From Candidatus Omnitrophota bacterium (GTDB lineage Bacteria; Omnitrophota; Gorgyraeia; B26-G9): a stretch of 64,000 nucleotides of DNA. The notes beneath the pieces were generated by a model. It ran no database searches. It saw only the letters and a list, made by a program, of their open reading frames with translations, and had not been told where the DNA came from. Shown piece after piece: positions 837-20,805 of this stretch (the stretch's first letter is position 1; the number at the start of each line of letters is the position of its first letter). The translations under genes and the position numbers were made by a program. Where the stretch lies: contig JBDRJV010000037.1 of NCBI GenBank assembly GCA_043814605.1, positions 31,899-95,898 on the forward strand, written 5' to 3'.

Positions 837-2510
837 ATGAGAGAAACTATAAATTTAAAACAAAACATAGATTCAAATAAAACATTTATAACTTTGCTTG
901 CTGTATTATTAGCATTCCACTTTTTTAGTAATGCTTATTTATTAACCAAAAATCCCTTACCAGAAGGTAAGGACAGTTATGCGCACATTATGGGTTATTT
1001 GAATTTTTCTGATATTTTACAACAACGAACCAAGAGTTTATTTTACCAACCAGAGAAAAGTTTATTTTATAACATATTTTTTTCTGTTTTTGACTATCCG
1101 GTATTTTTTTATTTAACTGTTTTTTTTATAAATATGATTTTCGGTAATTTTATATTTTATTGTATAATTTTTACTTCAACAGTATTTTTTTTACTGCTGT
1201 TAATCGCAGTTTATAAAATCGGATGTTTTCTCAACCCGCAAACAGGTATTTTAGCTGCGGTAATTTGTTCTTCTTTCCCGATTGTTTTTATTACAGCGCG
1301 ACATTTTAATTTAGAAATAGCTCTGAGTGCTTTAGTTTGTGTAAGTATCTGGATGCTATTAAGAACAAATTTTTTTACAGAACGCTTATTTTCTATTTTA
1401 CTGGGTATTATTTTAGGTTTAGGGATGTTAACGAAACAGTCTTTCCTGATATATGTTTTAGGACCGATCGCCATAATTTTATACAAATGTTTAGTAGTTC
1501 GCGATCGCGATATATTTTTTACAAGCATTAGGAATATTATTTTTTGCTTTGCAATTGCACTGCTTTTAAGCTTTTATTTTTATAGCCAAGGCGATATTTA
1601 TATGAATATTAACACAAGAATAAACTTTACTGGTGCAGTTAACGGCAATAATATTTTTCAAACACAACATTTGATGTATTATGTAAAATCATTAACATTA
1701 AGTTTAGGCTGGGGATTTACTTTGCTGTTAATATTTTCTTTATTTAGTATCAGGAAAATTACTCAACCGCTGCGGTTTTTACTAATTGCCTGGTTTATAT
1801 TTCCGTTATTAGTTTTTACTTTTATAAAAATTAAATATACTGAATATTCTATTGCCTATCTACCGGCAGCAGCGATAATTTCCGGATCAGCAATCAGTTT
1901 AATTAGAAATATTAAATTAAAAAAAATTTTAATAATTAGTATTTTAGTTATGGCTACAGTGAATTTTTTTATGTTATCTTATTTTAATTTTAAATCATTT
2001 TTTACCACATATTATTACCAAAATCTCAAAGGGGAACTTATTGAGAGTGATCAGATCACTGGGATAAGTCAGATCGAAAGGAAAACAGAATTTAAGGATT
2101 TGTTAAAAAAATTAGGCAATTCTGGCAAAGCAATAGGAATTTTTTATGATGATATAAACCTGCAATTCCCGGCTTATTTCACCAGGTTTATTAGTGTAGA
2201 AACAAAAAAACAAGTTCAAATATTGGATATGCTATTTCGCATCCCTTTATTTTTCAACAAGTTAGATCGGATTGACAGTTTAATTTTTGTTTCCTGCTCA
2301 GGGCAGGATTGGATCAGCGAGAAATCTTTTTTTAAGTTTGAGCAGGATTTAAATAAACAAACTTTTTACAGATACAAATTTAGACCGTATTTTTTGGAGA
2401 GAATCCTGGCGGCTAAAAAAAATTTTATATTAACGCACAAACTAGGTTTTGAAACCACAGGGAATAAATTGCAAAAGGAAAATATTTTTATTTATAAAAG
2501 GATGCCTTAA
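837..2510 (+). CDS. Polytopic membrane glycosyltransferase, GT-C fold (ArnT / PMT / GT39-83-like)
   Basis: A 557 aa ORF with >10 predicted TM helices in the N-terminal two-thirds and a soluble C-terminal domain. This architecture is typical of lipid-carrier-dependent GT-C enzymes. No catalytic motif was verified. Confidence 0.5.
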   Translation: MRETINLKQNIDSNKTFITLLAVLLAFHFFSNAYLLTKNPLPEGKDSYAHIMGYLNFSDILQQRTKSLFYQPEKSLFYNIFFSVFDYPVFFYLTVFFINMIFGNFIFYCIIFTSTVFFLLLLIAVYKIGCFLNPQTGILAAVICSSFPIVFITARHFNLEIALSALVCVSIWMLLRTNFFTERLFSILLGIILGLGMLTKQSFLIYVLGPIAIILYKCLVVRDRDIFFTSIRNIIFCFAIALLLSFYFYSQGDIYMNINTRINFTGAVNGNNIFQTQHLMYYVKSLTLSLGWGFTLLLIFSLFSIRKITQPLRFLLIAWFIFPLLVFTFIKIKYTEYSIAYLPAAAIISGSAISLIRNIKLKKILIISILVMATVNFFMLSYFNFKSFFTTYYYQNLKGELIESDQITGISQIERKTEFKDLLKKLGNSGKAIGIFYDDINLQFPAYFTRFISVETKKQVQILDMLFRIPLFFNKLDRIDSLIFVSCSGQDWISEKSFFKFEQDLNKQTFYRYKFRPYFLERILAAKKNFILTHKLGFETTGNKLQKENIFIYKRMP

Positions 2511-3572
2511 ATGCTGCAAAGTATATATTTTCAATTAAATAATTTTATGGCTTTTTACAATCTTTTTTCAGTACGGCAAGCAGCCAGTTTTTTACAAAAT
2601 TTGCCGTTATCAATTAATTTATTGAGAACGGCAAAGTGTAATTTAAATTGCCGGATTTGCTCAGCTAAAGACATGCTTAATATAGGGAATGAATTAACCA
2701 CGGGTGAAATCATCAGCTTTATTGAAAAAAATGCAGAGTATAAACCGATTTTTTTTATCGGAGGAGGAGAACCTTTTATCCGTAAGGATATCCTGGAATT
2801 TGCCAGAGTGTTCAGCCGGAATAAATTAAAATACGGGATTGTTACTAATGGGACTTTGCTTAATCCCGAAATTATGGGTGAATTGTTCAATAATAAATTA
2901 AATGTGCTGATTTTTTCTTTACATGGCAATCAGCTGCAGCATGATAAGGTGACCGGTAAAAGTGGGGCATATAGTTTAATTAGTAATAATATAAAATTTG
3001 CTGCGAAAAATAAGAAAAGTACTAAAATAATTTTAAATTTTGTAATAAATGAGGAGAATTATTTACAGCTTGAGCAAATTATTAAATTTGGAAAAAATCA
3101 AGGAGTAAATCAAGTAAGAATTGAGCATTTAATTTTTTTAACAAAAAATGAATACAAGCAGCATTTAGAAGTTTGCCGGAAACTTTTTCCAAAGAACAAT
3201 ACAAATCTTGTAATTTTTAAAAAGGATATTAATAATTTGGAAATTGGTGATTTTTTAAAAAAAGAGATACCTCGCTTAAAAAAGAAATACAAAAATTTTG
3301 TTTTATTTAAACCGCATTTGAGTCAAGCTGAAATTGAATCATGGTATTGTGAGAATTTTCAATTAAATCGTAAGTGTTTTTTTGTGCAGCATTCAGTTTT
3401 TGTAAACCCAAACGGAGATATTGTTCCCTGTCAGTTTTTAGGAAATTATAAACTAGGGAATATCAAGGAGGTTGAGTTAGTTGATGCCTGGCGAAATAAA
3501 GCCAGTCAAAATATTAAAAAAACTTTAAAGCAAAAGATTTTACCCGGATGTAACCGATGCTGTAAATTATGA
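2511..3572 (+). CDS. Radical SAM / SPASM-domain protein
   Basis: CNLNCRIC is a CxxxCxxC radical-SAM motif near the N-terminus. The C-terminus has a cysteine cluster (CQFLGN...PGCNRCC) typical of SPASM/twitch auxiliary clusters. The start abuts the upstream stop (TAAATG). Confidence 0.8.
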   Translation: MLQSIYFQLNNFMAFYNLFSVRQAASFLQNLPLSINLLRTAKCNLNCRICSAKDMLNIGNELTTGEIISFIEKNAEYKPIFFIGGGEPFIRKDILEFARVFSRNKLKYGIVTNGTLLNPEIMGELFNNKLNVLIFSLHGNQLQHDKVTGKSGAYSLISNNIKFAAKNKKSTKIILNFVINEENYLQLEQIIKFGKNQGVNQVRIEHLIFLTKNEYKQHLEVCRKLFPKNNTNLVIFKKDINNLEIGDFLKKEIPRLKKKYKNFVLFKPHLSQAEIESWYCENFQLNRKCFFVQHSVFVNPNGDIVPCQFLGNYKLGNIKEVELVDAWRNKASQNIKKTLKQKILPGCNRCCKL

Positions 3573-4117
3573 AAATTTTGTTAAATAAAAGTTATAACTT
3601 ATTAAGGGATATATATTTAGAAAGCATTAATTTTACGGATAAAACTAAGCTTTTAGATATCGGTTGCGGTTTGAGGGGTAATTTTCTAAAGCTGCCTAAA
3701 TTTGTGTATACAGGTGTTGATGCTAATAAACATATTATTGCTAAATTGAGAAAGAAATCAGATGGGCTATATGAGTGTATGGATGCGAATGATTTAAAAT
3801 TTGAAAATAACTTTTTTGATTACATAATATCAACGAGTTTTTTCCATCATTGCTCAAAGAATAATATTCGTGCGATAGTAGAGCAAATAAAAAAGATTTT
3901 AAAAGATTCGGGAAAAATAATTATTGCAGATGGGGTATATCCGGATTCTAAAATTAATATTTTAGGATATTTAATTAGATTTTTTGACCGGGGTAGATTC
4001 GTGAGAAGAAAAGATGAATTCAGAGAGTTATTTGAGAATTTTTTTATTGTTAAAAAAGAAGTTTATTTTGTGAATAAGTTTTTTGCATATTACGTATTAG
4101 TAATGGAAAAAAAATAA
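3569..4117 (+). CDS. Class I SAM-dependent methyltransferase
   Basis: LLDIGCGLRGNF matches Rossmann motif I of SAM methyltransferases. It overlaps the upstream gene by 4 nt (ATGA). Confidence 0.65.
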   Translation: MKILLNKSYNLLRDIYLESINFTDKTKLLDIGCGLRGNFLKLPKFVYTGVDANKHIIAKLRKKSDGLYECMDANDLKFENNFFDYIISTSFFHHCSKNNIRAIVEQIKKILKDSGKIIIADGVYPDSKINILGYLIRFFDRGRFVRRKDEFRELFENFFIVKKEVYFVNKFFAYYVLVMEKK

Positions 4118-4118
4118 G

Positions 4119-5555
4119 ATGATAAATCAGTTAAAACAAAAAAAAAATAATTCAGAACTTTTAGTGTTTACAGTAATTTTAGCCTGTGGATTTTTTATGC
4201 GGCTTTTTTCTTTAATAAATTCAGATAATTTCCATGGTATTGCGGCAGGTAAAATTTTTGAAGCTCGTTATTTGCTCAAACATCCAGAGGAGCTTTGGGC
4301 TTGGATTGTCCCGGCCCATGGGCCGGTGCATTTATACTTGATCGCAATTTTATTTAAAATATTTGGTGATTATATAATTATTGCAAGATTAATAAGTTTA
4401 TTTTCCGGAGTGGCCTTATTTTTTCCCTATTATAAACTGATCAAACTTTCCTTCAGCAGAGATATTGCGCTTTTTAGTTGTTTTATCGCAGCTTTTTTTT
4501 ACTTACATGTAATTTATAGTGTGATTTCGACTGCGGAATCAATTTTTATTTTATTTTTATTTTCGGGGTTGTATTTTTATTTTAAATATTTCCAAAGTCA
4601 AAGAGTTTTTGAGTTGATAATTTCTGCGCTTTGTGTAGGAGTTTCAAGTATGTGTCGATTTGAAGGAGGGTTATACATAGTTTTATTAAGTGCTTTTTTA
4701 ATAAAAAAACCAAAAATAATGTTGATTTTTTTAATAAGTTCCTGTATGTTGCCTTGGGTTTGGATAGTTTTTAATTTTATTTTGTACGGCGATTTTTTCT
4801 ATTTTTTAACATCAAGCGATAATATCGTAAAGTATGAATTTGATAACCTAAAAGTTTACGGAACTCAATATACAATAACCGAGAGAATTTTATATTGGCC
4901 AATGGTATTAAAAGGGTATTTTGGAAATATATTATTTATTTTCGGTATAATCGGGCTTTGGTCTAATTTTCGCAACGCTAAAACTAAACTGCTGTTAGTT
5001 CTATTCCTGAGTATTTTAGGTTTTTTTATTTTTAAAACTTTTTATAAAGAACTGGCAATGCAGCCGCGTTATGGATTAAGTCTCGGATGCTTATTCATCC
5101 CGTTTATTGCAGATGCCTTATTAACTGGCTATACAAGAGTAAAAAAAATTTCCAAAAATTTAATACTGGCTCGGGATCAATTTAAAATGCTATTTTTTTT
5201 AATTCTTTTTTATATAGTAATAAGAGGATCATATTTAAGTTTAGTGCAATTACCGCATACTCCTCTCTGGGTAGAGAAAACAGCTAAATTTCTTGCTGCT
5301 AATGTAGACGAAAATAAAAATGAATTAGTGTATATTGATTCTGATGATGATAATTTTATAGAGCCGATTAAAATTTTATCGGGACTGGATGTGGACAGTT
5401 TTGTGGATATGCAGGCAGAAGGAACACATAAAGAATTGATTGAATCAGCTTCTTTAAAAAATATTAAATATCGTATTTTAATTTCAAAAACCAGGAATCT
5501 TAATTTAAAACAAATTTTTCAAGCTTCTGATTGTAAAATTTATAAAATAAAGTAA
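4119..5555 (+). CDS. Polytopic membrane protein, GT-C-like glycosyltransferase (paralog A)
   Basis: 478 aa with about 10 TM helices and a C-terminal soluble domain. The N-terminal motif FHGIAAGKIF is shared with the next gene (DTFHGIAAGRTL), so the two form a tandem paralog pair. Confidence 0.5.
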   Translation: MINQLKQKKNNSELLVFTVILACGFFMRLFSLINSDNFHGIAAGKIFEARYLLKHPEELWAWIVPAHGPVHLYLIAILFKIFGDYIIIARLISLFSGVALFFPYYKLIKLSFSRDIALFSCFIAAFFYLHVIYSVISTAESIFILFLFSGLYFYFKYFQSQRVFELIISALCVGVSSMCRFEGGLYIVLLSAFLIKKPKIMLIFLISSCMLPWVWIVFNFILYGDFFYFLTSSDNIVKYEFDNLKVYGTQYTITERILYWPMVLKGYFGNILFIFGIIGLWSNFRNAKTKLLLVLFLSILGFFIFKTFYKELAMQPRYGLSLGCLFIPFIADALLTGYTRVKKISKNLILARDQFKMLFFLILFYIVIRGSYLSLVQLPHTPLWVEKTAKFLAANVDENKNELVYIDSDDDNFIEPIKILSGLDVDSFVDMQAEGTHKELIESASLKNIKYRILISKTRNLNLKQIFQASDCKIYKIK

Positions 5556-5560
5556 ATTAT

Positions 5561-7057
5561 ATGTCAAATAAAATCACTAAAAGCAGCATCATTTTAATCC
5601 TGATAATAACCGCGATCTTTATAGGTTTAAGATTATTTTTATTACTGGACACGGATACTTTTCATGGTATTGCCGCAGGAAGAACTTTGCTTGCAGAATT
5701 AATATTAAGGAACGGTTTTTATTCAAAGTTATGCTTTGTTCCCGTACATCCGCCAATACATACAGTTATGCTAGTTGCGGGATTGTTTATCTGGAATAAT
5801 CCGATAATTTTACCTGGGTTAGTAAGTTTATTTTTCGGGACGCTTACTTGCCTTCCTTTTTATTACTATAACAAAAGTGTTTTTGATGAAAAAGTGGCTG
5901 TATTTTCGCTAGCAGCAATTAGTTTGTATTCTGATCATATTGCTTATAGTATTATTGGGACTTCAGAAACAATTTTTCATTTTTTTCTTTTCAGTAGTTT
6001 AGTTTTTGCTTTATTTTTTAAAAAAAACAAGAATATGCGGTATTTTTATCTGAGTGCAATAATGATTTCAATAGCTAGTTTATGCCGGTATGAAGGAATA
6101 ATATTTATCCCTTTTTTTTCTGTTTTTTTAACTAAGAAAATAAAAAATATTATTCTCTTTCTAATTGTTTCTTTAATTTTACCGGGTATATGGATGTGCG
6201 TAAATTTTTATTTTACCGGAAATTTTATATATTTTTTAAATACTAATGATATTACCGTACCTTTACAATTTAATTGGATGCGGTTGCAGGGGCTAGATAT
6301 AAACGTTACTTATAAAATTCTATTTTGGCCGCGAGTTTTAATCAATACAATAGGAGTATTTTTTCTTTTTTTTGGACTTGGGGGAGTTATCTTTTGTTTA
6401 AAGAGAGGAGAAAAATTATTTCCGGCAGGATTAGTCATATTTATATTATGTTTATTTGTATTAAGAACTTATCAAGAAAAACTCTATTTGCAGACTCGCT
6501 ACGGCATAACCATTGGTTTATTATTAATTCCTTTTGCAATTTACTTTTTTCAGGTTACTGTTAAAAAGATTAATCGTAACTTGCCGGACTGGTTAGTTTT
6601 ATTTTTACTTTTGACCCTGATTCCTGCCTGGGGAAAGACACTTTCCCAGGAAAGCTTATTTCTCCCGGATACAGTTAAAAATATAAGCAGTTTTTTAGGT
6701 AAAGAAGTTAAAGAAAATGAAAATATTTTTATAACTTCAGAACAAAATGAAAATTATCGTGAAGTGATAAAATTAAGAAGCCGTCTTAATCCTAAACAAT
6801 TTATACTAATTCCGTATCTTGAGCCGTATGAAAACAAATTTATTATAAAACTGGAAACATTTTTTCAATATTTAGAAAAAGAGAATATTAAGTTTTTTGT
6901 CTATTCTCCAGAGGGAGAGTTAGGAAATATTCTGAAATTTGAGGGAAAAGGGGAAAAGTTTAATATGAATGGGTTCTGGTTCAAGCTTATTTATAAAAAT
7001 AGATTATATCATATTTATAAGGTAGACCCTTTAAAAGAGGGGGTAGAAGATGTTTAA
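5561..7057 (+). CDS. Polytopic membrane protein, GT-C-like glycosyltransferase (paralog B)
   Basis: 498 aa with the same TM topology and the shared N-terminal FHGIAAG motif as 4119..5555. Confidence 0.5.
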   Translation: MSNKITKSSIILILIITAIFIGLRLFLLLDTDTFHGIAAGRTLLAELILRNGFYSKLCFVPVHPPIHTVMLVAGLFIWNNPIILPGLVSLFFGTLTCLPFYYYNKSVFDEKVAVFSLAAISLYSDHIAYSIIGTSETIFHFFLFSSLVFALFFKKNKNMRYFYLSAIMISIASLCRYEGIIFIPFFSVFLTKKIKNIILFLIVSLILPGIWMCVNFYFTGNFIYFLNTNDITVPLQFNWMRLQGLDINVTYKILFWPRVLINTIGVFFLFFGLGGVIFCLKRGEKLFPAGLVIFILCLFVLRTYQEKLYLQTRYGITIGLLLIPFAIYFFQVTVKKINRNLPDWLVLFLLLTLIPAWGKTLSQESLFLPDTVKNISSFLGKEVKENENIFITSEQNENYREVIKLRSRLNPKQFILIPYLEPYENKFIIKLETFFQYLEKENIKFFVYSPEGELGNILKFEGKGEKFNMNGFWFKLIYKNRLYHIYKVDPLKEGVEDV

Positions 7058-8282
7058 ATTGTGCCGAGGCCGAATAATATTTTCAATGGATATATTCGGA
7101 GATTTAATTAAAAGTTTTTTTAGTAAAAAAAATAATGGAGAGTTAACTATTAAAAAATTTGAAGATGATTTTGCTCAATATATTGGCAGTAAACATGCAG
7201 TTGCGGTTGCTTCGGGTAAGATGGCATTGTATTTAACGTTGAAGGCATTAGGCGCAAAGGAGGGGGATCAGATTATTATTCCTGCCTATACAGTTAGCGA
7301 AGTTATTGATGTAATTATTCTTTGTAAATTAATACCGGTTTTTGTGGATATTAATCTTAAAGACGCGAATATTGATGTATCCTTGATTGAAAAAAGAATT
7401 ACTCCGAATACTAAATTTATCTTAATGGTACATATGTTTGGATGCCCCTGTGACATTGATGAAATAATTGCAATAAGCAAAAAATATAATCTTAAAGTTA
7501 TTGAAGATGGAGCTCAGAGCTGTGGGGCTGAATATAAAGGAAAAAAAATAGGAAGTTTTGGTGATATTGGGTATTTTAGCTTTGGCATCATGAAAAATTT
7601 AAATACATTAGGCGGGGGAATGATTGTAGCGCAAAATTCTGATCGAATAAATTTTATTAGAAAACAGATAAATAAGTTTTCTGAAAATTTGATGGGGCAA
7701 CTTTTTAAAAAAACGGTTTTAGTTTTTTTTGTATCTATACTAACTACGCCGGTTATATTCTCATTTGTAGTATATCCGTTACTATTTATTATCGAAGAGA
7801 ACAGAAGAGAAAAAATATTTAAGAGTTTATTTAAAGCTAGACCTGTAACAGCACAGTGTATGGAAAAGCTAAAAGTAAAATTTTCTCCTTATCAAGCGGC
7901 GATTGGCATAGCCGGCCTTAAAAAAATTGAACAGATAAATCAAAAGCGGATAAATAATGCTAAAGTTCTAAATCAGGCTCTTAATAATATCGATGGTGTT
8001 TCTTTGATTAAAGAATCAAGTGATTCAAAAAACATTTATTTAAACTATGTGATCCGCATTAATAACAGACAAAAACTAATTAATCGTATGTTTAATAAAG
8101 GAATTGATGTAAGTGCGGGGTTTATTGAATGCTGTCCGGATTTAGCCAGATTTGAGCTTTACCAGTGCGATTGTCCTAGAAGCAGGATTTGGGAAAAAGA
8201 AAATCTATATTTACCGGTTTATCATCCGCTGAAAAGAGAAGTAATGATAAAAATTTCGAAATTAATAAAGGAAGCATTGTGA
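7050..8282 (+). CDS. DegT/DnrJ/EryC1/StrS-family PLP-dependent sugar aminotransferase (ArnB-like), with unusual hydrophobic insertion
   Basis: Family motifs are present: EDGAQSCGAEYKGKKIGSFGDIGYFSF...K...GGGMIV and the FSPYQAAIGIAGL region. A ~45 aa insertion (KTVLVFFVSILTTPVIFSFVVYPLLFII) is absent from the two other DegT paralogs in this window. Confidence 0.8.
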   Translation: MFKLCRGRIIFSMDIFGDLIKSFFSKKNNGELTIKKFEDDFAQYIGSKHAVAVASGKMALYLTLKALGAKEGDQIIIPAYTVSEVIDVIILCKLIPVFVDINLKDANIDVSLIEKRITPNTKFILMVHMFGCPCDIDEIIAISKKYNLKVIEDGAQSCGAEYKGKKIGSFGDIGYFSFGIMKNLNTLGGGMIVAQNSDRINFIRKQINKFSENLMGQLFKKTVLVFFVSILTTPVIFSFVVYPLLFIIEENRREKIFKSLFKARPVTAQCMEKLKVKFSPYQAAIGIAGLKKIEQINQKRINNAKVLNQALNNIDGVSLIKESSDSKNIYLNYVIRINNRQKLINRMFNKGIDVSAGFIECCPDLARFELYQCDCPRSRIWEKENLYLPVYHPLKREVMIKISKLIKEAL

Positions 8283-8296
8283 AAAATAATCATAGC

Positions 8297-9676: not shown

Positions 9677-9677
9677 A

Positions 9678-12253: not shown

Positions 12254-13143
12254 TTGAAATCAGCATTGTTATTGTAACTTATTCTGCAGAGAAATTCATA
12301 AAAAATTGTTTAGATTCTGTTTTTGCGCAGGATTTAAATAATTTTGAAGTTATTATTATTGATAATAACTCTGGCGATAATACTATTAATATCTTAAAGA
12401 AATATTTGTCAAAAATAATTTTAATAGAAAATAAAAAAAATGAGGGTTTTTGTTTCGCAACTAATCAAGGCATATTACTTGCAAAAGGAAAATATATATT
12501 TACTTTAAATAGCGATGTTTACTTAAGTAAGGACTACGTTTTAAATTTAAAAAATTTTTTAGAAAGAAATTTAGAAGCAGGCATGGCAGGGGGTAAATTG
12601 TTAAGAATGGATAAAATAACTATCGATACTATCGGCCTAAAATTGGGGGTTTTTTATCGGTTCTTAAATATCGCAGAATCGGAGAAAGATACGGGTAAAT
12701 ATAAAGTTCCTTTAGAAATTATGGGTCCTTGTGCAGCCGCGGCCTTATATAAGCGGGAGCTTTTAGAGAGTATTAGATATAAGGATGAATTTTTTGATAA
12801 TCAGTTTTTTTTCTTGGCTGATGATTTTGATATTGCCTGGCGGGCACAGCGAATAGGTTGTAAGGGGTTTTATGTTCCAAATGCAGTTTGCTGGCATTAC
12901 CGGGATAGTTCAGGGCATAAATCCCAGTTCAAACAATACCTTTCATTCAGAAACAGGTATTATTTATTGATTAAAAATGCGGGTTTTAAAACTGTTTTTT
13001 TGTTTGCATTAGGTTTTTTATTTTATGATTTTCCCAGGCTGGTTTTTCTTTTAATAACTAATACTAAGTATACAGCGAAAGCAATAGCGGAAATTTTTAT
13101 GAATATGCCTGAAATTTTATCAAAGCGTGTAAAAAAAATATGA
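12250..13143 (+). CDS. GT2 family glycosyltransferase
   Basis: Has the IVIVTYSAEKF...IIIDNNSGDNT N-terminal GT-A signature and a DDFDIAWRAQ region. It is a paralog of 49120..50097. Confidence 0.7.
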   Translation: MIEISIVIVTYSAEKFIKNCLDSVFAQDLNNFEVIIIDNNSGDNTINILKKYLSKIILIENKKNEGFCFATNQGILLAKGKYIFTLNSDVYLSKDYVLNLKNFLERNLEAGMAGGKLLRMDKITIDTIGLKLGVFYRFLNIAESEKDTGKYKVPLEIMGPCAAAALYKRELLESIRYKDEFFDNQFFFLADDFDIAWRAQRIGCKGFYVPNAVCWHYRDSSGHKSQFKQYLSFRNRYYLLIKNAGFKTVFLFALGFLFYDFPRLVFLLITNTKYTAKAIAEIFMNMPEILSKRVKKI

Positions 13144-14252: not shown

Positions 14253-14826
14253 AAAAATAATTCAGATTTTAACAATAAGCATAATTTTTATTAGTTTCAA
14301 TAGGTATCTTTATGCAGAAAATTTATTTTATCCATTTGATGCCCGAGATATTACCGGGAAATGGCAGGAATCAGTAATCGAACAAGATGAGGTAATTAAG
14401 ACGGCATCCTTAAAAACAAAAGGAAAAATACAGTTAAATATCCCGGAAGATGGATTTTACCAATTATGCATTGAATTATATCACAATTGGCACAAATTCT
14501 GTCCTTTTATCTATTTTAATACGAGAGACAGCCAAGGAAAAACTTTTTCGGATTTTTTATTTTCAGAAAAACGATGGTATTTACCAGAAAATAGCGGCCG
14601 CTGGGAAATGAGGGCGCTGAGTGCAAATCCTTTTTGGTTTTTACATAAAGGTGAACTTAATATTGAATTCTGGCTCGAATCAAAACAATCTTGCTGGGAC
14701 AAACAGGATAAAGAAATAGAAGGAGAGTTTTATATTAAAAGATTTATTTTAGTAAAAGTTGATATGCTCGAAAAAAGCGATAAAAACTTTCAAACTAAAA
14801 ATTTAGAAAAAACAGAAGATTTTTAA
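14245..14826 (+). CDS. Hypothetical secreted protein
   Basis: N-terminal signal-peptide-like segment (ILTISIIFISFNRYLYA). No recognisable domain. Confidence 0.45.
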   Translation: MFRKIIQILTISIIFISFNRYLYAENLFYPFDARDITGKWQESVIEQDEVIKTASLKTKGKIQLNIPEDGFYQLCIELYHNWHKFCPFIYFNTRDSQGKTFSDFLFSEKRWYLPENSGRWEMRALSANPFWFLHKGELNIEFWLESKQSCWDKQDKEIEGEFYIKRFILVKVDMLEKSDKNFQTKNLEKTEDF

Positions 14827-14832
14827 TAAAAA

Positions 14833-15675
14833 ATGAAAAATAATAAAAAAATATTTTTAACATTTGACCTTGAAGAATGGCCGATAAGAGGACGTTATAA
14901 GATAGATCCTAATTTTGAAAAAAATACAAAGTTTTCAAAAAATGGAACTTTAAAATTAATGGATTTATTTAGTAAATACAATATTAAGTGTACTTTTTTT
15001 GTCACGGGTTTTTTTGCGCAAAATGAGCCAGAAGTTATAAAACTGCTTTCAAGTAAAGGGCATGAAATAGGTTCTCATTCTTTTGCGAACATTAATTTGT
15101 TGGATTTATCAATAGAGGATATTTATTCTGAATTAAGTGCAACAAAAAAATTACTAAAGGATTTAACCGGGCAAAATATAGTTAGTTTTCGTGCACCATT
15201 TTGTTGGTTAACACCCGATATTATTAAAATCTTAGAAAAGCTAGATTTTAAATATGATAGTTCAATTCATCCGGCAATTATTCCCGGCTATTATTATAAT
15301 TGGAAATATCCGCTGGATCCCTATTATCTTTGTTTAAAAAGTAAGTCATTTTTTAATAATAAGAGTAATGGGGTTTTAGAAATTCCTATATCCGTAATTC
15401 CCAGGGTAAGATTTCCTATTTCCTGGTGGTGGATGAGAAATTTAGGCGTAGGGATAACTAAATTAGGGATGAATATGAATTTAAACCAAAACCGGTCAGT
15501 AGTTTTATATTTTCATCCCTGGGAATTTGATAATATCCCTAGAATTAAGGGTATTCCTTATCATTTGATCAGAGGGTGCGGCAAAGCCAATTTAAAAAGA
15601 TTAGAAATTATAATAAAATTGTTTATAAAAAAATACCCCTTTGGTAAGATGAATGACTTTTTAGCTAAGGAATGA
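14833..15675 (+). CDS. Polysaccharide deacetylase (CE4 / NodB-homology; ArnD-like)
   Basis: TFDLEEWP (the D-D/E motif region) and HEIGSHSFAN (a NodB His motif) are present. Confidence 0.75.
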   Translation: MKNNKKIFLTFDLEEWPIRGRYKIDPNFEKNTKFSKNGTLKLMDLFSKYNIKCTFFVTGFFAQNEPEVIKLLSSKGHEIGSHSFANINLLDLSIEDIYSELSATKKLLKDLTGQNIVSFRAPFCWLTPDIIKILEKLDFKYDSSIHPAIIPGYYYNWKYPLDPYYLCLKSKSFFNNKSNGVLEIPISVIPRVRFPISWWWMRNLGVGITKLGMNMNLNQNRSVVLYFHPWEFDNIPRIKGIPYHLIRGCGKANLKRLEIIIKLFIKKYPFGKMNDFLAKE

Positions 15676-15814
15676 GAGATAATTAATCCGGTGAAGAGGA
15701 TTATTGCTAAACCCAATATAATATTTATTAAAAAATTAGGGACGGTTAAGTTTTAATTAGTTAAGATTTTTATATTTGAGTACAGTATTCCATAAAAGTT
15801 TAGAAAGAAAAGTT

Positions 15815-17362
15815 ATGAGAAAAATGTTTATGATAGTTGTATTCATGTTTTGCACAGTTTTAATTTATCTGGTAAGTTTATATTTATTTTCAAGAACTAA
15901 CATAGAATTATTTCCTCCCGATGAAATGGCCAAACTGACTATTGCTTTAGGCTATTACCAATACTTATTTTCCCCAGAGTTGATGCCGCAATCAAGTTTA
16001 TTTAGTGTAAATTTAAATTATTTCCCGCCGGTTTATTTTGTGACTTCAGCAATGGTCTGCCACTTATTTAACGGGTTTTCCATAAAAACATGTTTACTCT
16101 CAAATCTCATATATTTAGTTACTCTAATTATCTCTATTTTTTTTCTGACAAAAAAAATTAGCAAAAATGAAATGTGTGCTTTATTTGCACTATTTGTACT
16201 ATTATTTTTTGACCCTTTATTTTCTAGATTTTCAAGGCATTATGCAATGGAGTTTGGGGTAGCAAGTTTCGTTTGTTTATTTTTATGTGTTTTGGTTCAT
16301 CTAAATGAATTTAAAAATAAATATTGGTATATAGCGCTTGGCTTAATCTGGGCGATAGGGATGCTTATAAAATGGACATTTATTGTTTATGCTACAGTTC
16401 CATTAGGGGGCTTCATTTATACTTTAATACTAAATAAACGCAAACAAGAATTAAATAGACTTAAAATAAGTTTTTATGTGGGGGCAATAATTTTCGGTAT
16501 TTGGTTTATGTTATTTTGCGACCTATCTTTACTTGTGAATAAGTATTTCCGTACAATAAATCAGGAATCCGTTATTTTTGATATCGTATCGTATTTACAT
16601 TGTACTAAAGAAACATTTTTATTTTATTTAATATGGGTTCTTATTTATTTACCATTTTTATTATTTTTCTGGAAAATAAAATTTTCCTACAAAAAATTTT
16701 TATTAACCTGGGTAGGAGTTCCTTTTATTTTTTATTCTTTTTTTACCGGGTCGCCTTACAATAAGTATCTTATTCCGATAATTCCGGGATTAGCCGTATT
16801 GACAAGCGTAACAGTTTTTCGATTTAGTAGAAAACTTAAAAAATTTTTAATAATCTTGATTATAATAATTGGGCTGTTTATTTACGTATCAAATTGCTTA
16901 AATTCAGGCGATCGAGAAAAATGGAACATAAATAATATTGAAAATTTTAAAAAAATTATACAGATAATTAAAACTAAAGAAGATCCAGAAAATTTTAAAG
17001 ATTTATTATTGATCATAAATCAAGATACAATAAAAAGTAATGCTTTAAATGCTAATTCAATTTATTTACATTACTTATTAATGTTAGAAAAATTAAATGT
17101 AAATTTTACCCAGATGAATATTTATCATTTTAATAGAATTGAATGGTATGATTCAAGGGTGTTTCTTTCGAAAAATATTGTAGGTTATGACTATATTATT
17201 ATCTGCGATAAAGAAGATATTGATTTGCAAAGTATTAATTTTGATTTCCAAAGTTTTGAAAAATTAAATGAATATAATTTAATTTTAAAACATAATCAAA
17301 ACGAATATATATCGACAATTACATTTTTCAAAAAATTAATCCAAAATAAGAGTTTATTATAA
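15815..17362 (+). CDS. Polytopic membrane protein, GT-C-like glycosyltransferase
   Basis: The ORF track begins at a TTG (15776). The first in-frame ATG is at 15815 (MRKMFMIVV). The protein has >10 TM helices and a soluble C-terminal domain. Confidence 0.45.
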   Translation: MRKMFMIVVFMFCTVLIYLVSLYLFSRTNIELFPPDEMAKLTIALGYYQYLFSPELMPQSSLFSVNLNYFPPVYFVTSAMVCHLFNGFSIKTCLLSNLIYLVTLIISIFFLTKKISKNEMCALFALFVLLFFDPLFSRFSRHYAMEFGVASFVCLFLCVLVHLNEFKNKYWYIALGLIWAIGMLIKWTFIVYATVPLGGFIYTLILNKRKQELNRLKISFYVGAIIFGIWFMLFCDLSLLVNKYFRTINQESVIFDIVSYLHCTKETFLFYLIWVLIYLPFLLFFWKIKFSYKKFLLTWVGVPFIFYSFFTGSPYNKYLIPIIPGLAVLTSVTVFRFSRKLKKFLIILIIIIGLFIYVSNCLNSGDREKWNINNIENFKKIIQIIKTKEDPENFKDLLLIINQDTIKSNALNANSIYLHYLLMLEKLNVNFTQMNIYHFNRIEWYDSRVFLSKNIVGYDYIIICDKEDIDLQSINFDFQSFEKLNEYNLILKHNQNEYISTITFFKKLIQNKSLL

Positions 17363-18063
17363 TGAAAAATAAGCGTATTGCAATAATGCAGCCTGGATAT
17401 ATCCCCTGGTTGGGATTTTTTGAATTAATGGATAAAGCGGATTTATTTGTGTATTTAGATGACGTGCAGTATACAATCAGAGATTGGAGAAATAGGAATA
17501 GAATCAGGACGGCTCAGGGGTGGCAGTGGTTAAGTATTCCTGTATTGCATAAATCTAGACGGGAACAACTATTAAAGGATGCCTTAATTAATAATCAAAT
17601 TGATTGGAGGGGTAGTCATTTGCGTGCACTTGAGATTAATTATTCAAAAGCTAGTTTTTTTAGTAACAATTTTAGTGTAATAACGCAAATATTATTAAAA
17701 CATTGGGAAAATTTAACAGATTTAAATATTACAATGATTGAAGTTATCAGAGAATTATTAGGAATCAAAACTCCAACTATACGAGCATCTATGCTTAATA
17801 ATATTAAGACTGGTAAAACTCAACGAATAATTAGTATTTGTAAACAATTACAAGCAAATTATCTTTATGATAGCGCAGCAGCGGCTAGTTTTATTGATAT
17901 TGATTTGTTTGCAAAAGAGGGAATAGTAGTAGAATTTCAAAATTATAAACATCCTGAATATAAACAAGTATATAAACCATTTATTCCGTATATGTCTGTG
18001 TTAGACTTATTGTTTAACTGTGGGAGAGAAAGTTTGCAAAATATTTCTAATCGCAAAAAATAA
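17362..18063 (+). CDS. WbqC-like family protein
   Basis: The N-terminus KRIAIMQPGYIPWLGFFELMDKADLFVYLDDVQY matches the conserved start of WbqC-like proteins found in O-antigen loci. TAATG overlap with the upstream gene. Confidence 0.6.
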   Translation: MKNKRIAIMQPGYIPWLGFFELMDKADLFVYLDDVQYTIRDWRNRNRIRTAQGWQWLSIPVLHKSRREQLLKDALINNQIDWRGSHLRALEINYSKASFFSNNFSVITQILLKHWENLTDLNITMIEVIRELLGIKTPTIRASMLNNIKTGKTQRIISICKQLQANYLYDSAAAASFIDIDLFAKEGIVVEFQNYKHPEYKQVYKPFIPYMSVLDLLFNCGRESLQNISNRKK

Positions 18064-18131
18064 TAGATAAAATTAATTTTTAAAGCATAGATTTATGAAA
18101 AAGTATTTAAAAATTTGAAAGGATAAAACCA

Positions 18132-18968
18132 GTGAGGCTAATTAAAGTTTTCAATCTTTGCGTTGTTTTTTTTGCGGTTTTTAGCTTTTTGTCAAAATAC
18201 TGTTTAGAAGCTGCAGATAATCAATGTTTTAAAATAGTTCCTTTTAAAGTAGGTCAATGGGTCGAGTATCAGATCGTTAGTTTAGAGGAGCAAAGTAAAG
18301 ATAATAGATATAAAATTTCAGTTTTAAATGAAGAAATCATTGATGGAGAAATTTATTTTTGGATTGGTTTTGATGTTTTTAACCAAGGAAAAAGAGAAAT
18401 ATCATTTAAGGCCTTAATGAAAAATTTTAAAACAGATGACTTAAAGCTTAAAAAAGAGCAATTTATAGCAGAAGGGATAATAAGTTTTTTCAAAGCTTCG
18501 GATAAACTTTATATAAAAGCAGGTGGTAGCGAGTGGGTAGAGGTTAATCCTAAAACGTACTTTTTAAATTTGAAACTATTAGAAAATTCGTTCTATGAAC
18601 AGGTTCCGGATGAACTAGGGAAAGTTGATTATTCTAAACTTGTGATGATTGGGAGGGAAGAGATTAATGTTTCTTCTCAGGAATTTAACTGTTTGCATTA
18701 CCAAGTAAAAACTAATCCTTCGGATGAATTTTCTGATGAAGGGATAGATTTGTGGCGCTCAGATAAAGTGCCTTTTTTAGGAATTGTAAAATTAGAATTT
18801 TCAAAAACTGATTACGATCTTAAGTTGCGCTATCAAGAAAGCAAAATCCTTGCTTCAAAAAGTATTTTTTATAAAATTTTTTATTACTTATTTAACAAAT
18901 TACCTAAAGATACGCATACTCGTAAAGATATTTATAAAATAAATTTGATTGATTATAAAAATTATTAA
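18132..18968 (+). CDS. Hypothetical secreted protein
   Basis: GTG start. N-terminal signal-peptide-like segment (VFNLCVVFFAVFSFLSKYCLEA). No recognisable domain. Confidence 0.45.
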   Translation: MRLIKVFNLCVVFFAVFSFLSKYCLEAADNQCFKIVPFKVGQWVEYQIVSLEEQSKDNRYKISVLNEEIIDGEIYFWIGFDVFNQGKREISFKALMKNFKTDDLKLKKEQFIAEGIISFFKASDKLYIKAGGSEWVEVNPKTYFLNLKLLENSFYEQVPDELGKVDYSKLVMIGREEINVSSQEFNCLHYQVKTNPSDEFSDEGIDLWRSDKVPFLGIVKLEFSKTDYDLKLRYQESKILASKSIFYKIFYYLFNKLPKDTHTRKDIYKINLIDYKNY

Positions 18969-18987
18969 TTTTAACTGGGGTGGTCCA

Positions 18988-20805
18988 TTGAAGAAAAACA
19001 TAAAAAATTTAACAGCAATTTTGATGATTTTGATTGCAGTCATAATATATTTACTTCCGTTATTATTAAATCTAGACAAAGCATTTGATTTTCCTAAAAA
19101 AAATTTTGTTAATGGATTCTATGATATTTATTATTGTGCAATGATGTATCGATATAGTTTGCTGGAGGAAGGTCAGTTATTGTTTTGGTGGCCATTTAGG
19201 GAAGGAGGTTTATATGTTTTAATGCACCCTGCATTTATAGGAGTCAGTCCTTTCTCAATATTTATTCTGTTATTAGGGGTAATTAAAGGAGTTAATTTTA
19301 TATATGCTATATCCTACTTGATTGCTGGAATATCTATGTTCTATTTAACCCGTATGGTTTTAAAATATGATATTTATGGAGCAGTTTATTCATCCTTAGT
19401 ATTTGCGATGTGTGGGTTTTTCCCCTTTATGCAGTTTAATGGATTTATTTATGCGCGTGAGACAGTATTTTTACCCTTAATTACAGCAATGTATTTAAAA
19501 GCAGAATATTCAAATAAGTATAGTTATTTAACTGCAGTAATTTTGAGTGTATTTATTTTTTCAACAGGAATTTATTTTTTAGTGATTTTACTTTTTTTAT
19601 TCATATTTTCGTGTGTAAATTCTCAATCAGAAAAAAATGATAAATTGTATTTTTCGCATAGATTTTTTATAATTTTTTTAACAATAATATTCTTTACTTT
19701 AATTTTTTCTTTACCAAAAATTTCTCCAGTACCGCAATTAATTGACGCAAACTATGAACCTTTAAATACCGTATATTATCCAGAAAGTATTTTAAGCGTT
19801 AATCATGCGGCGAATAATATAAACCTATTTTTTACTCATCTTCTGGTTCCAGGAATGACTGGATTAGGGACAATGTACACAGGGATTTTACCGGTTTTTT
19901 TATGCATAATATCTTTTGTAATTTTTTTTAAAAAAAATCTAAAGTGGCTGATAATTTTAATAATTTTCATCGTATTATCTTTTGGACCTAATTCGCTTTT
20001 AGATTTACATTACTGGGTACAAAAAATTCCGTTGTTTAAATATATGATTGAAATATCTAAATATTACGCATTGATTATTGTTTTTATTATAAGTATAATT
20101 AGCGGTGCTTTTTTTAAATTATTAAAATCAAATTTTTCAAAGAAGAATAGAAATATTATTGCCATAACTCTTTGTTTGCTCACCTATGGGAATTTATTAT
20201 GGGCTAATATCGGATATTTTAGCGTTTATAATAAAAAAATTATGTTAGAGAAAAAACTTTCTTCAGGCAATTTTAGCAGTGCTAGATGTATTAATATGCA
20301 TCGCAGAGATGAAGGTGGTTTTGTATTGCTATTTAATGCGCTATTTCTAAAAGGAATAGGGGCGCATAATTTTATGTATAGAAGTACCGGAACTTTTAGG
20401 TCCGATTATCTTGAATCTAAATATTTTGTAATTCCTCGTTTTGTTTTCCTTCAACCCAGTACAGAAATAATGATACTCAAGAATCCGGCATATAATGGGG
20501 AGGTAAATTTTCTTAGTAAAAGTAATTTAGTTAAGTATTTTTCTATAAAACCTAATAGTGTTCATTTAAAAATTGAGGTTATTGAACCGGACATATTGAT
20601 CATCAATCAGAATTACTCTAAATACTGGATGTCTCAAGAGGGTAACGTTATCAATTATAAGGGGTTATTAGCATTAGCAATAAATAAAAAAGGTGAGTAT
20701 GAGGTAACGATTAAGTATGTTCCAATAGAATTTTATTTAGGAAGTATTATTTCCCTAATTTTTTTGATGTTATTTGGAATATATTTTTTAAAAAGGAAAA
20801 AGTGA
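18988..20805 (+). CDS. Large polytopic membrane protein (GT-C / YfhO-like candidate)
   Basis: The ORF track begins at TTG 18949, overlapping the upstream gene. TTG 18988 (preceded by GGGGTGG) or ATG 19024 are more plausible starts. There are ~12 TM helices and a C-terminal soluble domain with one final TM. Confidence 0.4.
   Translation: MKKNIKNLTAILMILIAVIIYLLPLLLNLDKAFDFPKKNFVNGFYDIYYCAMMYRYSLLEEGQLLFWWPFREGGLYVLMHPAFIGVSPFSIFILLLGVIKGVNFIYAISYLIAGISMFYLTRMVLKYDIYGAVYSSLVFAMCGFFPFMQFNGFIYARETVFLPLITAMYLKAEYSNKYSYLTAVILSVFIFSTGIYFLVILLFLFIFSCVNSQSEKNDKLYFSHRFFIIFLTIIFFTLIFSLPKISPVPQLIDANYEPLNTVYYPESILSVNHAANNINLFFTHLLVPGMTGLGTMYTGILPVFLCIISFVIFFKKNLKWLIILIIFIVLSFGPNSLLDLHYWVQKIPLFKYMIEISKYYALIIVFIISIISGAFFKLLKSNFSKKNRNIIAITLCLLTYGNLLWANIGYFSVYNKKIMLEKKLSSGNFSSARCINMHRRDEGGFVLLFNALFLKGIGAHNFMYRSTGTFRSDYLESKYFVIPRFVFLQPSTEIMILKNPAYNGEVNFLSKSNLVKYFSIKPNSVHLKIEVIEPDILIINQNYSKYWMSQEGNVINYKGLLALAINKKGEYEVTIKYVPIEFYLGSIISLIFLMLFGIYFLKRKK

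Follow-up and report, generated by a model that had tools for sequence, protein, structure and literature searches.

A conserved Omnitrophota gene cluster encoding six putative GT-C glycosyltransferases of three lineages

Three-component systems of periplasmic glycosylation combine a polyprenyl-phosphate GT2, a flippase and a GT-C glycosyltransferase (PMC11127046), and YfhO provides a precedent for this arrangement (PMC5836110). The enzyme class is well known, and the locus described here, from a Candidatus Omnitrophota bacterium, is uncharacterized. We analyzed a stretch of 64,000 nt (the window, to which all coordinates refer) with a focus on the region 837..20805. Our analysis supports the assignment of the six polytopic membrane proteins encoded there, here called A to F, to the GT-C-fold glycosyltransferases, in three lineages. 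One comprises the PMT_2/ArnT-like proteins A and E, another is a lineage-restricted subfamily of PMT_2 (B, C and D), and the third is represented by F, which is like YfhO and AftD. With a probability of roughly 65%, these proteins glycosylate an envelope glycan at the periplasmic face, using lipid-phosphate-sugar donors. The membrane proteins and their candidate catalytic residues are the following:

837..2510, plus strand: A, GT-C glycosyltransferase of PMT_2 type (557 aa; C-terminal soluble region of ~178 aa)
4119..5555, plus strand: B, GT-C glycosyltransferase, first of the B/C/D triad (478 aa)
4224-4226, plus strand: candidate catalytic Asp36 of B, within the motif S-D-N-F-H-G-I-A-A-G
5561..7057, plus strand: C, GT-C glycosyltransferase, tandem paralog of B (498 aa; PMT_2 match of 35.1 bits)
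5654-5656, plus strand: candidate catalytic Asp32 of C
8297..9676, plus strand: D, third GT-C glycosyltransferase of the triad and its most divergent one (459 aa)
8396-8398, plus strand: candidate catalytic Asp34 of D
15815..17362, plus strand: E, GT-C glycosyltransferase of PMT_2 type, distant paralog of A (515 aa from the NCBI start)
18988..20805, plus strand: F, divergent YfhO-like GT-C glycosyltransferase (605 aa from the NCBI start)
50091..51755, plus strand: G, membrane protein of the O-antigen ligase/polymerase type (Wzy_C) with C-terminal TPR repeats
51758..53491, plus strand: H, GT-C-like protein with a divergent PMT_2 core, beyond 837..20805

The ORF listing contains 17 plus-strand ORFs across 837..20805, together with two minus-strand ORFs of at least 100 aa, one within A and one within a radical-SAM gene, which look spurious. 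Six of the listed ORFs encode polytopic membrane proteins, one fewer than the seven counted in the preliminary description; the remaining ORFs of similar size encode soluble enzymes, a B12 radical SAM protein (10787-12253) and a DegT-family protein (7050-8282). The mechanical ORFs of three of the genes begin further upstream: D at 8189-9676, with a TTG at 8189 (the likely start is the ATG at 8297), E at 15776-17362 and F at 18949-20805. The same description had given these proteins more than ten transmembrane (TM) helices and a soluble C-terminus. A C-terminal non-hydrophobic region of 100–200 aa was indeed present in each of A to F, and the helix number was borne out roughly: a crude hydropathy scan, which under-counts TM helices when judged against the AF2 model of B, gave 7–11 hydrophobic segments per protein, whereas this model contains at least 14 helices before residue 376, followed by an alpha/beta domain at 383–478.

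The reading of the proteins as GT-C enzymes held for all six, by matches to PMT_2 or matches of their orthologs, by homology and by a structure model. In the Pfam search, A, B, C and E exceeded the gathering threshold of PMT_2 (PF13231) with 33–56 bits, and the same four are already named glycosyltransferase family 39 proteins by NCBI. A scored 33.4 bits (threshold 26.1) and E 33.5 bits, and the two were linked by hhalign at 99.2%. The sole PDB match of the A family profile was ArnT (5ezm; E 0.065). E43, D46 and H50 are invariant after TM1 in the A family, which has further motifs at D86-Y-P-P, R155-H-F..E160 and K200-Q201; E carries a D49-E50 pair after TM1 (ORF residue numbering).

B and C had been described as tandem paralogs, and they share 35% identity over 406 aa (E 1.9e-63; hhalign probability 100%). 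The motif FHGIAAG noted for this pair occupies residues 38–44 of B and 34–40 of C and is nearly invariant among B orthologs. C orthologs adjoin B in 11 of 12 loci in a scan of species representatives. By sequence comparison, the pair belongs to a conserved triad, B-C-(DegT)-D, as D matches B and C with 25% identity (E 3e-13) and an hhalign probability of 100%. D itself reached 15.4 bits against PMT_2, below the threshold; in view of its homology to B and C and of two orthologs that pass this model (35.9 and 31.5 bits), we regard it as a GT-C protein as well.

For F, the suggested YfhO relationship was found in 3 of 15 orthologs (best E 7.9e-10), and two orthologs weakly matched GT-C_AftD, while F itself had no Pfam match. 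The structural evidence on its fold comes from a predicted model (pLDDT 79), with STT3B (21.6), Pmt4 (19.1), AftA (18.9), PglB (18.5) and AftD (18.4) as structure matches. In this model, a probable periplasmic beta-sandwich domain, beta-rich at ~414–577, precedes a final C-terminal TM helix. The gene directly upstream, hyp278, has no family match in Pfam or NCBIfam, and in two other loci, L016 and L017, its orthologs (36–38% identity, E 1e-41 to 2e-62) directly precede those of F.

Further along the window, H is probably a seventh GT-C-like protein, as judged from alignments. It had no match in Pfam or PDB; compared over the PMT_2 core region with a PMT_2-positive protein of 522 aa from L016, it scored 42.7 bits, against 18.3 ± 1.8 (maximum 23.9) in 200 shuffles, and hhalign gave weak matches to B, C and D in a common register. 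The preceding gene product, G, is not a GT-C protein; it has a Wzy_C match of 41.9 bits, above the Pfam gathering threshold, and no hhalign link to A–F.

In GT-C enzymes, the catalytic acid is usually found directly after TM1, where the first periplasmic loop begins. The N-termini of the proteins are rich in lysine, which suggests that they remain inside and that the loop after TM1 is periplasmic. The Asp just before FHGIAAG (D36 in B, D32 in C, D34 in D) is invariant in 19 aligned B/C/D sequences. When the B/C/D family is taken more widely (141 representatives), 62% have D or E in this column, and many carry another acidic residue three positions further on. A, B, C, D and E all have an acidic residue at this site, a candidate for the catalytic acid. 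In F, an invariant acidic residue in the first loop could not be placed.

The six GT-C genes lie together in a single operon-like cluster, conserved within an Omnitrophota lineage. The order hyp259-A-rSAM-MT-B-C-DegT-D-GT4-B12rSAM-GT2-DUF362-hyp193 recurs in at least 12 species-level Omnitrophota genomes, with protein identities of about 35–65%. The other genes are:

54..833, plus strand: hyp259, one TM helix as anchor and a putative periplasmic CBM4-like beta domain, directly upstream of A
2511..3572, plus strand: radical SAM/SPASM enzyme (Pfam Radical_SAM and SPASM), syntenic in all loci
3569..4117, plus strand: SAM-dependent methyltransferase (Pfam Methyltransf_11/25), a conserved member by synteny
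7050..8282, plus strand: DegT-family PLP sugar aminotransferase between C and D (DegT_DnrJ_EryC1, E 1.2e-73, two matched stretches)
9678..10781, plus strand: GT4 (GT-B fold) cytoplasmic glycosyltransferase (Pfam Glyco_trans_1_4 and Glycos_transf_1; 52–60% identity to orthologs)
10787..12253, plus strand: HpnJ-like B12-binding radical SAM protein (Pfam B12-binding and Radical_SAM)
12250..13143, plus strand: cytoplasmic GT2 of HpsE/rhamnosyltransferase-like type (Pfam Glycos_transf_2; NCBIfam and PDB matches)
13140..14252, plus strand: DUF362 protein (Pfam DUF362; 63–69% identity to orthologs)
14245..14826, plus strand: hyp193, secreted protein conserved in 10 loci, no match in Pfam, NCBIfam or PDB
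14833..15675, plus strand: polysaccharide deacetylase family enzyme (Pfam Polysacc_deac_1 and DUF3473)
17362..18063, plus strand: WbqC-like protein (Pfam WbqC, E 1.7e-75)
18132..18968, plus strand: hyp278, N-terminal signal or anchor, conserved partner directly upstream of F
38154..38918, plus strand: short GT2 with ArnC as best match, candidate polyprenyl-phosphate sugar synthase for donor supply

Hyp259 had no match in Pfam or NCBIfam; a profile of 12 orthologs weakly matched the CBM4 module of laminarinase 16A (1gui, E 3.2e-4) and, also weakly, a xylanase CBM4. In every locus covering that position, hyp259 is found ahead of an A-type GT-C gene, and additional copies lie next to additional A/E-like genes. 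The DegT protein has a hydrophobic insertion at about aa 215–250, kept in 12 orthologs, and in one genome (L014) DegT and D are a single ORF of 949 aa. The HpnJ-like protein is among the two best-conserved of the cluster (56–66% identity to orthologs); HpnJ is its best NCBIfam match, aligned over the full length but below the cut-off (E 1.7e-44). Also below the cut-off, the deacetylase matched the XrtA-system polysaccharide deacetylase of NCBIfam (E 4e-34). The N-terminus of the DUF362 protein, MKKFTRREFLQKG, reads as a twin-arginine signal, so the protein is probably periplasmic. The WbqC family is associated with O-antigen amino-sugar pathways. The cluster is followed by ~20 radical SAM genes, Tes-like and HpnJ-like ones among them; these may hint at a lipid rather than a glycan as the product.

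With regard to donor supply, a GT2 encoded two genes upstream of hyp259 in the orthologous loci matches the full-length ArnC model (E 2.5e-67). It is separated from hyp259 by a carbamoyltransferase gene, whose C-terminal tail forms the start of our window; the GT2 gene thus lies outside, and its presence in the source genome is expected from synteny only. The short GT2 at 38154..38918 matched the NCBIfam ArnC model far below its cut-off (E 3.8e-21, positions 4–183 of 316). Within the window, neither a flippase candidate (GtrA, SMR, MATE or Wzx) was recognized nor an initiating phosphoglycosyltransferase found.

We propose that cytoplasmic ArnC/GtrB-type GT2 enzymes would load polyprenyl phosphate with (amino)sugars, which DegT aminotransferases, carbamoyl- and methyltransferases, the deacetylase, WbqC and radical SAM enzymes may tailor. 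After flipping, the lipid-linked sugars would be exposed on the periplasmic side of the inner membrane, and each GT-C protein may transfer its sugar there with the help of the acidic residue with which the first periplasmic loop begins. The acceptor would be an LPS- or capsule-like envelope glycan with a backbone made by the GT4 and GT2 of the cluster, and separate periplasmic partners, the CBM4-like hyp259 for A and hyp278 for F, might help to hold it. Several GT-C proteins can reasonably be taken to suggest several donors or several acceptor sites, and the paralogs may be divided by linkage site, donor or both.

The targets might instead be lipids, either lipid A/core, in the manner of ArnT and Rhizobium RgtA/RgtB, or an atypical membrane lipid produced by the adjoining radical SAM enzymes, with the cluster building a glycolipid head group, which we consider doubtful. 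DegT, the ArnC-like GT2, the deacetylase-family enzyme and GT-C proteins together recall the scheme of the Arn pathway, but the equivalog models of ArnT and Rgt were unmatched and no ArnA-type formyltransferase or decarboxylase was seen. The paralogous RgtA and RgtB each add GalA to Kdo in the LPS core (PMC4402001), and membrane-spanning lipid genes have been reported in Omnitrophota MAGs (PMC11868695). Tes (tetraether lipid synthase), HpnJ and a “lipid biosynthesis B12-binding” family are the best matches of the neighboring radical SAM proteins, yet every one of these matches is far below the family cut-off, and the presence of the CBM4-like partner, GT4, GT2, WbqC and the gene of Wzy_C type is more characteristic of a polysaccharide locus.

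That A–F are protein O-glycosyltransferases acting on Ser/Thr of secreted or surface proteins (pili, S-layer or the giant Omnitrophota surface proteins) appears improbable. The NCBI label and the naming of Pfam PMT_2 after protein O-mannosyltransferases favor it, as does the Asp or Asp-Glu right after TM1 in the A, E and B/C/D families, resembling PMTs. The label is generic, however, because PMT_2 also spans ArnT-like and many uncharacterized enzymes; the PMT-specific model PF02366 was matched by none of the six proteins (E up to 1), MIR domains are lacking in A–F, and the genomic context is one of sugar tailoring, GT2/GT4 and a CBM-like partner with no target protein. Transporters, flippases or O-antigen polymerases/ligases, the outcome that the preliminary description had set against its own reading, are highly improbable: A–F are polytopic, lie within a glycan locus, and D and F, like H, lack above-threshold Pfam matches of their own, but Wzy_C was matched by none of the six and by the separate gene at 50091, PMT_2 matches exceed the threshold, and the acidic residue of the first loop is conserved.

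With the three-component systems GtrA/GtrB/Gtr*, CsbB/GtcA/YfhO and ORF15/ORF14/ORF12-GT136 the locus shares GT-C and ArnC/GtrB-type polyprenyl-phosphate GT2 genes in a surface-glycan context, F is a member of the wider YfhO-like group, and a CBM is associated with a GT-C protein as in ORF12 (PMC11127046), here as a separate membrane-anchored protein instead of a fused domain. Three-component systems have one GT-C gene, whereas the Omnitrophota cluster has six, possibly seven, a window devoid of a recognizable flippase and a very large tailoring set (DegT, carbamoyltransferase, methyltransferases and ~20 radical SAM genes). From ArnT of the Arn pathway (GT83) and from RgtA/RgtB it differs in the unmatched ArnT/Arn models and the lack of an ArnA-like enzyme, and identity to ArnT is ~12%. 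Protein O-mannosyltransferases (GT39, PMT) have the Pfam clan, the fold and the acidic motif after TM1 in common with it, but the cluster lacks a PF02366 match, MIR domains and any contextual hint of a protein substrate. Several GT-C enzymes acting serially on one glycan would, by analogy, resemble mycobacterial EmbA/B/C, AftA-D and PimE and the eukaryotic luminal ALG3/9/12/6/8/10, whose donors are polyprenyl- or dolichyl-phosphate monosaccharides. CBMs take part in acceptor binding there, as they may here, and the top matches of the predicted structures include ALG12, AftA, AftB and AftD. Unlike these sets, the Omnitrophota proteins show no sequence-level membership of those families, the host belongs to a candidate phylum of diderm bacteria within the PVC group, the genes lie in one compact conserved operon, and the sugars are probably amino and methylated ones rather than Araf or Man.

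The window has a G+C content of about 29%, and all its ORFs of at least 150 aa lie on the + strand. From 54 to ~53,500 the genes are densely packed, with stops and starts overlapping or nearly abutting. The region 837..20805 holds 17 genes on the + strand, and the two minus-strand ORFs of at least 100 aa found there are both nested in other genes. The preliminary description had counted seven polytopic membrane proteins in this region. Listing the ORFs of both strands, we found six, called A to F, and no seventh polytopic ORF on either strand:

837-2510, + strand: A, polytopic membrane protein
4119-5555, + strand: B, polytopic membrane protein
5561-7057, + strand: C, polytopic membrane protein
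ORF 8189-9676, + strand: D, polytopic; first ATG past the DegT stop at 8297, giving 459 aa
ORF 15776-17362, + strand: E, polytopic; 515 aa in NCBI
ORF 18949-20805, + strand: F, polytopic; 605 aa in NCBI

The length of D from the ATG at 8297 agrees with those of its orthologs (465-477 aa). Cell-division genes of the dcw type follow 3' of the packed region:

54913: mraW
56336: ftsI
58022: murE
59524: murF

At the usual place of mraY and murD after murF in a dcw cluster lie two genes without clear family (60954..63130), encoding a 234-aa protein with a weak DUF3108-like match and a 482-aa protein with faint TPR/ARM matches only.

The proposed assignment of these proteins to the GT-C transferases is borne out for A-F by their Pfam PMT_2 (PF13231) scores, by homology links and by structural models of B and F. 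The PMT_2 gathering threshold of 26.1 bits is exceeded by A (33.4 bits), B (55.7), C (35.1) and E (33.5). With its corrected start, D stays under the threshold at 15.4 bits, and two D orthologs reach 35.9 and 31.5 bits. Neither F nor H, a polytopic protein encoded further downstream, matched PMT_2, and F had no match in Pfam or NCBIfam. Three of 15 F orthologs match YfhO (PF09586; best E 7.9e-10, F itself without match), and two of the 15 weakly match the GT-C domain of AftD. Profile-profile comparison separated three groups: A with E (99.2% probability), B, C and D (100% for each of the pairs B-C, B-D and C-D), and F. The links between the groups are weaker and mostly in register (B-F 81%, D-F 76%, A-F 52%, A to B/C/D 34-51%). 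A word-indexed search retrieved almost no close homologs of E, and its assignment is therefore based on Pfam and its profile match with A. We conclude that A-F are members of the GT-C superfamily and that five of the six also belong to PMT_2, D itself being under the threshold.

In NCBI, the name 'glycosyltransferase family 39 protein', which derives from the generic PMT_2 model, is given to A, B, C and E, and F and H are named 'hypothetical'. An identity as CAZy GT39 protein O-mannosyltransferases is not supported, the PMT model PF02366 being unmatched by A-F at E up to 1; one D ortholog reached 20.1 bits, under the cut-off of 22.7. ArnT (GT83) identity is not supported either: no ArnT-specific model matched, the ArnT model being absent among NCBIfam matches at E up to 1, and no ArnA-like or ArnE/F-like genes were seen. 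An Arn-like context is present, with DegT, an ArnC-like GT2 and a deacetylase. That the proteins are transporters or O-antigen polymerases is excluded by the lack of any Wzy_C (PF04932) match in A-F; a Wzy_C domain (41.9 bits) was found in a separate gene at 50091-51755.

Searching PDB sequences with the profiles yielded little, namely no relevant match for B/C/D and F and ArnT as the sole match for A (E 0.065), so that a comparison of folds was needed. Against solved GT-C structures, the predicted model of B scored 27.4 with ALG12, 27.0 with AglB, 25.7 with STT3B, 24.9 with Pmt4 and 23.8 with ArnT. For F the scores were 21.6 with STT3B, 19.1 with Pmt4, 18.9 with AftA, 18.5 with PglB, 18.4 with AftD and 13.8 with ArnT, and structural matches 1-17 were all of the GT-C kind. 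This three-dimensional similarity was compared on the models of B and F, to which A, C, D and E are linked by sequence. A crude hydropathy scan gave 7-11 hydrophobic segments for each of A-F; it under-counts, since the AlphaFold (AF2) models of B and F show more helices, with at least 14 in residues 1-376 of B and a comparable bundle in F. According to scan and models, A-F have the polytopic domain of GT-C enzymes (~7-13 TM helices). The soluble C-terminal part noticed earlier was also recovered by the scan, as a non-hydrophobic C-terminal region of 100-200 aa in each protein.

In the model of B, TM1 ends at residue 34 and is followed by Asp36 of the sequence S-D-N-F-H-G. This residue (D32 in C, D34 in D) is invariant in an alignment of 19 sequences across the B, C and D subfamilies, alongside R28, G40, H130 and S134 of B. 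Among 141 representatives of the wider B/C/D family, the Asp36 column holds D or E in 62%, many with a second acid at +3, and R28, S134, R180, E182, R317 and Y318 are highly conserved. The A family shows an invariant P-x-x-E43-G-K-D46-S-x-A-H50 after TM1, with E43 and D46 invariant in 10-11 orthologs, and E has P-P-D49-E50 after TM1. For F, D30 is kept in eight of the 14 orthologs covering the region and E72 in the 12 closest; the ortholog alignment allowed no invariant acidic residue to be assigned in its first loop. The position after TM1 is the site of the catalytic or metal-binding acid in GT-C enzymes (Asp55 in ArnT, the Asp-Glu pair in Pmt1, the acid of the first loop in PglB). The N-termini are rich in Lys, which argues for a cytoplasmic N-terminus and thus for a periplasmic first loop. 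Judging from these alignments, A-E have the conserved acid that is predicted to open the first extracytoplasmic loop of GT-C enzymes.

B and C, already recognized as tandem paralogs, share 35% identity over 406 residues (E 1.9e-63); a third paralog is D, 25% identical to each of them (E ~3e-13). The FHGIAAG motif that had been pointed out lies at residues 38-44 of B and 34-40 of C and is almost invariant in B orthologs. B is 39-50% identical to its orthologs in other genomes and 30% and 22% to C and D of the same genome; the orthologs being closer, the triplication is old. When the complete set of 1.84 billion cluster representatives was searched with the B/C/D profile (HMMER), 232 clusters matched at E up to 1e-30, and 1,148 matched at E up to 1e-10. 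By profile matches, B/C/D is a modest, lineage-restricted subfamily inside the large PMT_2 group.

We collected orthologous loci by exact-protein look-ups and one scan of species-representative genomes. All were from Omnitrophota, except one labelled 'PVC group bacterium'. The gene order hyp259-A-radical SAM/SPASM-methyltransferase-B-C-DegT-D-GT4-B12 radical SAM-GT2-DUF362-hyp193, in which hyp259 (54..833) and hyp193 (14245..14826) are hypothetical genes, is kept in essentially all loci (BLASTP), at only 35-65% identity between the cluster proteins and their orthologs. C is absent from one genome. F orthologs lie on the same contigs as the cluster, each directly preceded by an ortholog (36-38% identity) of hyp278, the gene at 18132..18968 upstream of F. 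The two Pfam-matched halves of the DegT protein (7050..8282) are separated by a hydrophobic insertion (~30 residues) that is kept in 12 orthologs, and in one locus (L014, 12928..15777) DegT and D form a single ORF of 949 aa, for which a sequencing error is possible. This suggests that DegT is membrane-bound and coupled in function to D, perhaps with a lipid-linked sugar as its substrate. In another orthologous cluster (L016), an additional GT-C-like gene at 6649..8286 encodes 545 aa with a weak DUF6541 match, and the number of GT-C genes per cluster thus differs among genomes. In searching the literature, we found no account of this cluster in Omnitrophota.

In other genomes, genes for a GT4, a 316-aa GT2 and a NodU-like carbamoyltransferase precede the conserved block. 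The 316-aa GT2 matches the model of ArnC, the undecaprenyl-phosphate Ara4FN transferase, over its full length (E 2.5e-67), which identifies it as a polyprenyl-phosphate sugar synthase of the GtrB/ArnC/CsbB type. At its start (1..53), the window contains the final 22 codons of an ortholog of this NodU-like carbamoyltransferase. The conserved cluster thus reaches upstream of the window, and this genome probably has the same genes there. Another ArnC-like GT2, shorter than the first, is encoded at 38154-38918 (E 3.8e-21). Together, the synteny at the window edge and this gene suggest that the genome encodes a polyprenyl-phosphate GT2. Of the components of three-component periplasmic glycosylation, the GT-C part is present and the polyprenyl-phosphate GT2 part is present in the orthologous loci; no flippase and no initiating phosphoglycosyltransferase were recognized in the window. 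Judged from the ArnC-like GT2 context, the donors of A-F would be lipid-phosphate-linked sugars at the extracytoplasmic face.

The stop codon of hyp259 lies four bases before the start of A, and the protein consists of one TM helix and a beta domain. The profile of this domain matches the CBM4 module of laminarinase 16A (E 3.2e-4) and, weakly, a xylanase CBM4. In ORF12/GT136, EmbA/B/C and AftD, a CBM is fused to the GT-C enzyme and binds the acceptor glycan (PMC11127046). Here, a CBM-like module appears to be encoded separately, by hyp259. The hyp193 profile had no match in the PDB. The region further encodes the DegT aminotransferase, a polysaccharide-deacetylase-family enzyme, WbqC, a GT4, a GT2 and a DUF362 protein, which are typical of amino-sugar and surface-glycan pathways. 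The DUF362 protein (13140..14252) bears a twin-arginine signal for export (MKKFTRREFLQKG) and, at 63-69% identity to orthologs, ranks with the most conserved proteins of the cluster; it is probably periplasmic and cofactor-containing.

Outside of this region, H (51758-53491) adjoins the Wzy_C/TPR gene at 50091..51755. It has ~13 hydrophobic segments and a 147-aa tail and no match in Pfam, NCBIfam or the PDB. Over the PMT_2 core it aligned with a PMT_2-positive 522-aa protein of L016 at 42.7 bits, compared to 18.3 +/- 1.8 (maximum 23.9) for 200 shuffled controls; this one protein is its sole tie to PMT_2. Weak hhalign matches to B, C and D are in the same register. By these alignments, H is a probable seventh GT-C.

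A further feature is an array of 20 radical SAM genes over ~46 kb (2511..48833), all on the + strand:

2511, 32930, + strand: SPASM type (n=2)
10787, 20818, 28860, 35228, 36739, 40167, 43235, 44660, 47388, + strand: B12-binding (n=9)
23388, 24753, 26145, 27509, 30448, 33882, + strand: HMPTM zinc-ribbon N-terminus (n=6)
22287, 41973, 46178, + strand: plain radical SAM (n=3)

Radical SAM arrays were also found 3' of F orthologs in other Omnitrophota (L016, L017), and we regard this large neighbouring gene set as sugar- or lipid-tailoring. The best NCBIfam match of 10787..12253 and 20818..22284 is the hopanoid-associated enzyme HpnJ, for 10787 over the full length (E 1.7e-44) and under the cut-off. 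The gene at 10787, which lies between GT4 and GT2, is one of the two with the highest conservation in the block (56-66% identity to orthologs). The one zinc-ribbon protein scanned against NCBIfam (23388..24746) best matched the archaeal tetraether lipid synthase Tes (E 7e-44), with nearly the full model aligned, far under the cut-off and with TrsS almost equal. The six zinc-ribbon paralogs in one locus might serve lipid-tail or other C-C coupling chemistry, not sugar tailoring.

The analysis shows the fold, family, conserved acid, synteny and the ArnC-like GT2 of the orthologous loci; the chemistry of the donors, the place where the enzymes act, their acceptor and the way they share the work are inferred. 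A GT2 would load a sugar onto polyprenyl phosphate at the cytoplasmic face, the lipid-linked sugar would be flipped, and a GT-C would move the sugar to an acceptor outside the cytoplasm, which fits the known logic of extracytoplasmic glycosylation (PMC11127046, PMC5836110, PMC8035078). For six paralogs of three lineages, two readings are economical. One or few donors may serve several acceptor positions, for which there is a precedent in RgtA and RgtB, acting on the LPS core (PMC4402001). Alternatively, the enzymes may act in sequence, like those of mycobacterial arabinan synthesis or the luminal ALG enzymes.

GT-C enzymes take part in mycobacterial cell wall building, in the lipid A modification behind polymyxin resistance and in protein glycosylation, and bacterial ones usually occur singly or in small sets. 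The CBM-like partner and a gene context of polysaccharide type lead us to favour a glycan as the acceptor. A lipid acceptor is a serious alternative, if an unlikely one, and a protein acceptor a lesser one that we consider improbable. The genes could encode a periplasmic assembly line of six or seven GT-C enzymes that builds or heavily decorates an Omnitrophota-specific envelope glycoconjugate. Every GT-C lineage would cooperate with a partner that comes from a separate gene and binds the acceptor. As donors, the enzymes would use amino sugars linked to polyprenyl phosphate and tailored by radical SAM enzymes. DegT, inserted in the membrane and in one genome fused to D, would have a lipid-linked keto-sugar as its substrate there. 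To this joint reading we assign a probability of roughly 30%.

The phylum Omnitrophota is widespread; its bacteria are very small, in part dependent on hosts, and nearly all uncultured. A conserved operon of six or seven GT-C enzymes, with a putative periplasmic partner for each GT-C lineage and a very large tailoring gene set, points to an undescribed envelope polymer in this phylum. The surprise is moderate, since the enzyme class is familiar and a generic annotation as glycosyltransferase already exists for four of the six genes; the conserved cluster itself is undescribed. The cluster is unusual in how many GT-C genes one operon contains, in encoding the partner proteins separately, in the probable insertion of its DegT in the membrane and in the very large radical SAM complement adjoining it. 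The B/C/D triad offers a natural paralog set for studying how the acceptor or donor specificity of GT-C enzymes diverges. If the assembly-line reading is true, the cluster would give a diderm candidate phylum a bacterial equivalent of arabinan synthesis in mycobacteria or of the luminal ALG pathway in eukaryotes.
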